Shown here: positions 58,080 to 58,223 of the stretch, in pieces
Layout: every line of letters starts with the position of its first letter
Position numbering within the stretch: position 1 is the first letter of the stretch
Assembly (NCBI RefSeq): GCF_044324785.1
Contig: NZ_CP172127.1
Reading direction: 5' to 3' (one strand)
Length of the DNA stretch: 64,000 bases
DNA from: Escherichia coli
GTDB lineage: Bacteria; Pseudomonadota; Gammaproteobacteria; Enterobacterales; Enterobacteriaceae
Notes under the pieces: model-generated
Databases searched by the model: none
What the model was told of the DNA's origin: nothing
Seen by the model: the letters and a program-made list of their open reading frames with translations, nothing else
Position numbers and translations under genes: made by a program

Positions 58080-58104
58080 GCACTTACGAAGTGCGCTCTT
58101 TTTT
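58080..58104 (+). terminator. weak rho-independent terminator-like hairpin gcact-tacga-agtgc followed by TTTTTT
   Basis: 5-bp stem plus T-run read directly in sequence, just upstream of the 33-codon ORF. Confidence 0.3.
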
Positions 58105-58121
58105 AAAGCGAGGAAGTACCA

Positions 58122-58223
58122 ATGAAAGAGAATAAAGTACAACAAATCAGTCATAAACTGATTAATATCGTTGTTTTTGTCGCAATTGTAGAATACGCCT
58201 ATTTATTTCTCCATTTCTATTAA
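58122..58223 (+). CDS. ykgR: 33-aa hydrophobic small membrane peptide (MKENKVQQISHKLINIVVFVAIVEYAYLFLHFY)
   Basis: ATG preceded by GAGGAAG; single predicted TM helix; position and length match a small membrane protein I recall in this region, but the sequence identity is unverified. Confidence 0.4.
   Translation: MKENKVQQISHKLINIVVFVAIVEYAYLFLHFY

Follow-up and report, generated by a model that had tools for sequence, protein, structure and literature searches.

What is the 33-residue hydrophobic peptide encoded just ahead of ykgM and ykgO in Escherichia coli, and does its gene answer to the zinc regulator Zur, belong with the type I toxins or stand on its own? The preliminary description of the window (the whole 64,000-nucleotide stretch of DNA analysed here) kept both a small membrane protein and a toxin in view. 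Translation of the plus strand gives the same 33 residues as reported there, from the following frame.

58122..58223, plus strand: ykgR coding sequence, 33 codons and TAA with an ATG start, product MKENKVQQISHKLINIVVFVAIVEYAYLFLHFY

The tentative naming of this peptide as YkgR was correct. It is identical to K-12 YkgR (b4671, WP_000662258.1, UniProt YKGR_ECOLI) and to the 33 residues printed in Table S1 of PMC10470546, and ykgR is annotated in every E. coli RefSeq record inspected. The NCBIfam equivalog model NF041474 'membrane_YkgR' matches it over its full length, residues 1–33, with 78.1 bits (cut-off 40) and E=2.6e-22, and the precomputed Pfam label of its orthologues is PF28062:YkgR; the local Pfam copy, including the Hok, Ldr, Ibs and TisB models, gives no match to the peptide at E<=10. 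We assign the locus with high confidence to ykgR (b4671), already known to encode a single-pass inner-membrane protein of 33 residues. The gene is already catalogued; the new detail beyond the existing annotation is the anatomy of a module spanning 57994–58317 and the assignment of the ykgR 3′ end.

Of 5426 complete E. coli genomes, 5070 have the gene, with a median of one copy, and 5086 match the 701 bases around the frame. Among the matches listed, each full-length one carries the annotation "ykgR: small membrane protein YkgR", with ykgM next to it. The canonical allele stands on at least 1000 contigs of a large protein collection, the other alleles being rare single substitutions, and strain N3, the closest relative of the window (99.7%), shares its YkgR protein accession with a K-12 derivative. 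In MG1655, ykgR occupies 313141-313242 and its neighbour ykgM 312514-312777. The K-12 locus has the same position as that of the window relative to ykgM/ykgO and to an oxidoreductase remnant, and the same upstream block, hairpin, Shine–Dalgarno sequence and 3′ stem, with 7 differences in the 354 nt compared. Further upstream, the window has the gene neighbourhood of strain N3, with two aldo/keto reductases and a LysR regulator, and not that of K-12.

Comparison with two related sequences sets the limits of the locus. The V6I, or fergusonii-type, lineage (allele P0012, named both "Escherichia" and "E. fergusonii" in the sources) comprises genomes 4.45-4.72 Mb in size, and its neighbouring LysR gene shares about 88% identity with that of the window. 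Its homology to the window runs from 57994 to 58316 and ends on both sides, where the flanks differ. The alignment of the other relative, L003, starts at 58001. Among 11 E. coli strains, 5 of the 224 columns at 58000-58223 are variable, against 10-17% in the flanks. The comparisons show that ykgR forms a self-contained unit of transcription, about 325 nt long (57994-58317), made up of a constrained upstream and leader block, an exposed ribosome-binding site, a frame under selection and a conserved 3′ stem-loop. Around the coding sequence, its features are as follows.

57994..58079, plus strand: conserved upstream block of ykgR (candidate promoter/operator), delimited by homology between lineages and low variation in E. 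coli
58007-58019: palindrome GATGTA-A-TACATC, in the upstream block
58009-58018 and 58030-58039: two TGT[AG]ATACAT repeats, 21 bp apart, in the upstream block
58030-58045: CRP-like site TGTGATACATGTCAAA, with 1 mismatch to the pattern
58053-58058: -35-like TTGACC, in the upstream block
58067-58078: -10-like TA-rich (TA)n stretch, in the upstream block
58080-58094, plus strand: hairpin GCACTT-ACG-AAGTGC of 6 bp, followed by GCTCTTTTTT, that is, GCTC and then TTTTTT at 58099-58104
58110-58116, plus strand: Shine–Dalgarno-like GAGGAAG, 5 nt (TACCA) before the ATG
58224..58317, plus strand: ykgR 3′ UTR, with the RNA 3′ end at 58317
58268-58276 and 58304-58312, plus strand: stem-loop TCCTCTCCC / GGGAGAGGA, a perfect 9-bp inverted repeat with a 27-nt loop

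As far as our searches reach, the YkgR family and its module appear to be confined to Escherichia. A phmmer search of 1.84 billion representative proteins returned only Escherichia-type YkgR sequences together with frameshift or chimera variants. A pattern scan of species-representative genomes returned only two tiny contigs of E. coli contaminant and no Escherichia genome at all, so absence from that scan is uninformative. One sequence, P0009, with 66% identity, resembled a distant orthologue. It lies in E. coli-like DNA with many indels, where both ykgM and ykgO are broken, and these defects led us to discount it as a poor assembly or a decayed copy.

Conservation by itself does not prove that the frame is coding, because the non-coding block upstream of ykgR is conserved as strongly as the frame: among 11 diverse E. 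coli strains, 2 of 80 columns vary in the block, against 13-17% in its flanks, and 2 of 102 in the frame. This equal conservation is what speaks for a frame open by chance within a conserved non-coding element. The kind of substitution speaks against it. Relative to the fergusonii-type lineage, ykgR carries five synonymous changes and one conservative change, so that 5 of 6 substitutions are synonymous (pS 0.27, pN 0.012, pN/pS 0.05, P=0.0012). Relative to L003, pN/pS is 0.14 over codons 1-26, and the transmembrane core, codons 13-26, has 3 synonymous and 0 non-synonymous changes. The L003 protein (P0006, 32 residues, 77% identity) keeps frame and length, and its final seven residues are divergent yet hydrophobic. 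The pattern of substitution indicates that the ykgR frame is under purifying selection. The preliminary description had held that a frame not conserved in related genomes would count against the gene; the frame is kept in both the V6I lineage and L003, and that objection falls away. A curated equivalog model also matches the peptide, and the YkgR protein has been detected and studied biochemically (PMC7549839, PMC10470546). We give a chance frame next to no probability and regard it as refuted to a reasonable standard.

The single transmembrane helix proposed for the peptide is supported in two ways. The Kyte–Doolittle profile with a 19-residue window reaches its maximum mean of 2.01 at residues 13-31, and the TMHMM helix given in PMC10470546 (Table S1) covers residues 13-32. 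The same table marks the N-in/C-out orientation as experimentally examined, and YkgR in this orientation has served as a tag for periplasmic fusions, yielding 8-25 mg/L (PMC7558204). As described in PMC7549839, YkgR-His is detected upon arabinose induction, and YkgR made in vitro cross-links to SRP after puromycin release, a cross-link that is lost with membranes; targeting by SRP is there described as post-translational. Handover to SecYEG or YidC is assumed in reviews by analogy with YohP, whose insertion was demonstrated, and spontaneous insertion of YkgR into liposomes was not seen (PMC12648545). YkgR is also among the six class I substrates of RseP, an S2P protease acting within the membrane, which cleaves it whether supplied from a plasmid, from the chromosome or as purified enzyme (PMC10470546). 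The protein has been called 'stationary phase-induced' (PMC10502375), has also been described as stress-induced and is in a y-ome list (PMC12133099).

Translation is served by GAGGAAG, which the preliminary description placed six nucleotides upstream of the ATG; the motif is present, and the gap is five bases. E. coli and fergusonii-type sequences all keep it unchanged, and L003 has GAGGAAA. The Shine–Dalgarno sequence is predicted to be about 85% unpaired from 15 to 42 °C, in a leader that the conserved block limits to at most about 65 nt. We also considered an RNA thermometer, given that the U-run can pair with AGGA of the Shine–Dalgarno sequence; the candidate was rejected, as the fourU-like helix amounts to -1.9 kcal/mol and leaves the site about 85% unpaired.

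The transcript end is given by published data. Term-seq (PMC7815308) records a 3′ end at MG1655 313047 on the minus strand, classed as "orphan", with average reads of 48,378 in LB at OD 0.4 and 59,236 in LB at OD 2.0 and absent in M63 glucose. Both the ykgR coordinates and direct sequence comparison place MG1655 313047 at window position 58317, 5 nt past the 3′ stem and 94 nt past the stop codon, and on these grounds we assign the "orphan" end to the ykgR mRNA. The stem-loop itself folds with z = -3.1. Between E. coli and the V6I lineage its stem shows one compensatory change, C-G to U-A, and its loop is 63% identical. The ykgR RNA is monocistronic, with a putative length of about 240-260 nt. 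The absence of the end in glucose minimal medium, a single observation, fits catabolite control.

At the other end of the transcript lies the hairpin at 58080-58104, noted previously as terminator-like. The pattern is present, but no RNA 3′ end is detected at it: the curated Term-seq ends of PMC7815308 (LB 0.4, LB 2.0 and M63) include none near MG1655 ~313260, although very short RNAs may escape detection. It is the only terminator-like site in 57400-59200, where a pattern scan expects 1.1 +/- 1.1 by chance, and the fold of 58070-58125, at -11.3 kcal/mol and z = -1.1, is not unusually stable; by sequence statistics, therefore, the hairpin is no more than chance would give. What lends it significance is solely its conservation. 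E. coli and the V6I lineage show no change in the stem, and the two changes in L003 retain pairing as G.U on the plus strand only, a weak support for a stem at the RNA level, as two transitions do so by chance about one time in four. The gene upstream varies meanwhile: an oxidoreductase gene is intact in some E. coli strains and dead in the window, in K-12 and in the V6I lineage, and L003 has a BhsA-like gene instead. In the window, three translated fragments from 57657-57993 have no Pfam match. Since the hairpin is kept whatever gene lies upstream, dead or different, it travels with ykgR.

These observations bear on whether the hairpin works as a terminator of transcripts from the upstream oxidoreductase gene, or as an attenuator or insulator for ykgR. 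The pattern match and its retention in all lineages are in favour, as is the fergusonii-type arrangement, in which the hairpin would sit about 95 nt past the end of the oxidoreductase reading frame. Yet the stem is weak, with 3 G-C in 6 bp and -4.8 kcal/mol for its core (-8.7 with a mismatched 2-bp extension), and either GCUC or that mismatched extension comes between it and the U6 run. One such site is expected by chance in the region in any case, and Term-seq, with no 3′ end here, has a strong one on the same strand 213 nt downstream. The stem also stays invariant where the upstream gene is dead and is kept beside the different neighbour of L003. We consider any of these roles unlikely, and an efficient terminator is unlikely. 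Most likely the hairpin is part of the leader or promoter of ykgR, where it could form a stem at the 5′ end of the mRNA or a structure that straddles the start of transcription.

Upstream of the hairpin, the block is 92-100% identical between species, whereas synonymous sites in the frame differ by 27%, which shows that the non-coding 5′ part is strongly constrained. The CRP-like site within it matches a pattern that occurs at 6 sites in the 64-kb window against 1.74 expected; in L003 its half-sites are kept and its spacer is altered. The spacer between TTGACC and TATAAG measures 14 nt in E. coli, against 16 nt in both the V6I lineage and L003, and the sigma-70 candidates in E. coli are weak only, for example TTGGTT-18-TATAAG and TTCAAA-16-AAAAAT. 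The Reg-Seq supplement does not mention ykgR.

Downstream of the module, the following features bear on the proposed connection with zinc.

58562-58576: perfect Zur-box palindrome, directly before ykgM
58558-58575: perfect palindrome GTTATGTTA/TAACATAAC
58587..58850, plus strand: ykgM, 363 nt downstream of ykgR
58847..58990, plus strand: ykgO, following ykgM

That ykgR lies just upstream of the Zur-regulated ykgM-ykgO pair holds true in E. coli, but the arrangement is not shared by the V6I lineage. That the two genes lie on one strand in E. coli, with ykgR 363 nt ahead of ykgM, is the argument for a role in the zinc-starvation response, through regulation by Zur or co-transcription with ykgM-ykgO. 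The details of the region argue otherwise. The pattern TGTTATNNNATAACA with <=2 mismatches occurs in the region only at 58557-58576, in two overlapping registers, and this sole match directly precedes ykgM, with none near ykgR. Moreover, ykgM has a promoter-like TTGAAA-17-TATCCT of its own at 58525-58553, the counterpart of a constitutive ykgMO promoter, TTGAAA-17-TATCTT, described in PMC3946193. The ykgR RNA ends at 58317, 270 nt short of ykgM, and nowhere in the region is conservation lower than in the 363-nt spacer, where 10-17% of the columns vary. In ten V6I-lineage genomes ykgR is retained with neither ykgM nor ykgO within 1.5 kb, so that adjacency to ykgMO is particular to E. coli and not a conserved linkage. 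These points show ykgR to be independent of ykgMO and of Zur, and we hold a part for it in the zinc-starvation response to be very unlikely. A degenerate Zur-like sequence upstream of ykgR, CGTTATTTATATAAGG, was rejected, having the wrong spacing, >2 mismatches and no conservation in L003. In the V6I lineage, the DNA downstream of ykgR holds an integrase remnant, a tRNA-Thr(CGU) gene and variable islands.

The suggestion of a type I toxin, with an antisense or divergent small RNA silencing the mRNA of a membrane-damaging peptide, fares no better. The short single-helix format on which it was based does fit, but neither a toxin family nor an antitoxin RNA nor an antisense end goes with it. At <60 residues, with one transmembrane helix and short polar ends, YkgR has the form given for such toxins in a recent review (PMC12648545), and like Hok/Gef, Ldr, Ibs, ShoB, TisB, DinQ and ZorO it is short and hydrophobic with a single helix. 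HokB and HokE, which are true toxins, are like YkgR among the class I substrates of RseP (PMC10470546), and a weak promoter-like site on the minus strand lies inside the frame (58213..58185, 9/12 matches). Minus-strand promoter-like sites as a whole are below chance, however, at 3 against 5.3 expected. PADLOC gives no family match to YkgR at E<=10, and Rfam gives no family, known antitoxin RNAs included, in 55000-61000 at E<=1. The search for an antisense small RNA that the preliminary description called for finds none recorded in K-12 Term-seq on the antisense strand at the locus: across 312325-324603 there is no antisense 3′ end and the sole 3′ end is on the ykgR strand, although a novel RNA of weak expression may have gone undetected. 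Unlike the E. coli type I toxins, with their long, structured and closed 5′ UTR, ykgR has a short leader with an exposed Shine–Dalgarno sequence, and it is present as a single copy per genome. Over-production, from pBAD and as a high-yield fusion tag, appears to be tolerated, the passages on it in PMC7549839 and PMC7558204 making no mention of toxicity, whereas HokA is noted in the RseP study (PMC10470546) as severely growth-inhibitory. YkgR is missing from the E. coli type I toxins listed in the 2025 review, where it figures only as an insertion model (PMC12648545). A type I toxin is, on this evidence, highly improbable, and we infer that YkgR is not a toxin. The useful outcome is in this respect a negative one, in that the readings as a toxin and as a Zur target can go.

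With a known membrane protein in an independent module as the preferred reading, we lean slightly towards a mechanism in which YkgR would bind a larger inner-membrane protein through its transmembrane helix and act as an accessory or modulator. The likely contact surface would consist of Glu24, which lies within the membrane, and the aromatic C-terminal end, and RseP would set the half-life of YkgR. L003 and the main alleles retain Glu24, E24V being rare (32 contigs). YkgR is like MgrB, MgtS, AcrZ, CydX and KdpF (PMC12648545) in size, single helix and possession of its own promoter and Shine–Dalgarno sequence, and like small inner-membrane modulators in its expression under stress or in stationary phase; its insertion route has been studied together with that of YohP. 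It differs from these modulators in its mid-helix glutamate, in its restriction to Escherichia as far as searches reach and in having no known partner protein or phenotype. The accessory-subunit mechanism is drawn from analogy with them. The rest of the probability goes to lipid- or stress-related roles, or to no function. For those seeking the function, the analysis supplies the limits of the module, the assignment of the "orphan" 3′ end, the constraint upstream of the frame, the restriction to Escherichia and the independence from ykgMO.

Two further ideas, which we judge quite unlikely even when taken together, are that YkgR is a latent membrane-active peptide or that 58007-58121 holds an unrecognised regulatory device. 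In the former, the level of YkgR could be restrained by RseP proteolysis and not by an RNA antitoxin. For the latter, this non-coding 5′ part has about 4% divergence between species against 27% at synonymous sites. The device could be a tandem TGT[AG]ATACAT operator for an unrecognised regulator, possibly with CRP, or the 5′ hairpin acting as a 5′ stabiliser or attenuator. If true, such a device would account for the high level of ykgR RNA in LB and for its absence from glucose minimal medium.

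The ykgR mRNA ends most simply at a 3′ end already on record in K-12. Term-seq data place a strong RNA 3′ end at position 313047 on the minus strand of MG1655, the K-12 reference in which ykgR lies on that strand, and this end was classed as 'orphan' (PMC7815308). It falls 5 nt past a conserved stem-loop 3′ of ykgR, the stem of which differs between lineages by a single compensatory change. This RNA end was seen in LB at OD 0.4 and 2.0 but was absent in M63 glucose (PMC7815308). The stem-loop and the features flanking it are as follows, in window coordinates unless a locus is named.

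57434–57649: remnant of an NADH:flavin oxidoreductase gene, 5′ of ykgR
57657–57993: segment of 337 nt separating the oxidoreductase remnant from the ykgR module
58007–58045: two TGT[AG]ATACAT repeats, 21 bp apart, invariant
58053–58078: TTGACC–TATAAG spacer (L015, about 1430–1460; L003, about 2930–2960)
58268–58317: stem-loop and RNA 3′ end (MG1655 313047, minus strand; Term-seq, PMC7815308)
58525–58576: ykgM promoter-like TTGAAA-17-TATCCT, then the Zur box
about 59025–59250, minus strand: ykgL (MG1655 312325 and 312466, plus strand)
L015–L024, bases about 1700–3102: region 3′ of ykgR in the V6I (fergusonii-type) lineage

At the other end of the module, a palindrome, GATGTA-A-TACATC, encloses the first of the two repeats, and a CRP-like TGTGA-N6-TCAAA overlaps the second; the pair of repeats may form an operator for a putative regulator. 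The TTGACC and TATAAG elements are separated by 14 nt in E. coli, as opposed to 16 nt in both the V6I lineage and the third ykgR-bearing lineage, L003, because the length of a (TA)n run differs. This difference could reflect interspecies tuning of promoter strength.

Further upstream, the 337-nt segment is present in E. coli and missing from the V6I lineage. Its conservation is weak, with 13% of columns variable, and no Pfam family matched the fragments translated from it. The oxidoreductase gene that precedes it has an internal deletion in both the window and K-12, which leaves a 68-aa N-terminal fragment and a C-terminal remnant; the gene is intact (approximately 1,143 nt) in several other E. 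coli strains (L008, L010, L011, L013 and L014). In L003, a YdgH/BhsA-like (PF07338) gene, at 2432–2683, sits immediately 5′ of ykgR. A detergent-tolerance suppressor mutation has been reported in the E. coli ykgM–ykgR spacer in work on YdgH (PMC11705850), and the two observations probably coincide by chance.

Directly past the 3′ stem of ykgR, the V6I region is an integration hot spot. There, the C-terminal remnant of an integrase comes after ykgR, then a tRNA-Thr(CGU) gene encoded on the other strand (2023–2098 in L018), and beyond it strain-specific islands carrying integrase, PerC, aldehyde dehydrogenase and PRiA4-like genes.

Two apparent occurrences of ykgR outside Escherichia are almost certainly E. 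coli contamination: both are tiny contigs with 98% identity to the E. coli ykgR locus, one of 403 nt (NZ_MPDK01000122.1) in a Sulfoacidibacillus thermotolerans assembly and one of 264 nt (NZ_VLXZ01000260.1) in an Alkalicoccobacillus porphyridii assembly. A candidate divergent orthologue, with 66% identity to YkgR (P0009, from L004, GCA_900603405.1), belongs to an E. coli-like locus at 2860–3900 with many indels in ykgR, ykgM and ykgO, and is more suggestive of poor assembly quality or of a region in decay. A degenerate-pattern scan of representative genomes returned no Escherichia, yet an exact match to the pattern occurs in 93% of complete E. coli genomes; the scan is therefore not evidence of absence.

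Downstream, the Zur box, at 58558–58575, is a perfect palindrome 3′ of the ykgM promoter-like element, the second hexamer of which reads TATCCT in the window versus the TATCTT reported for K-12. In the window, ykgL is broken into two short ORFs (59060–59143 and 59143–59250), and its copy in the near-identical strain N3 is annotated as frameshifted. Transcripts from the ykgL strand in K-12 run antisense into ykgO/ykgM and end there, in a Rho-dependent manner according to Term-seq and BCM data.
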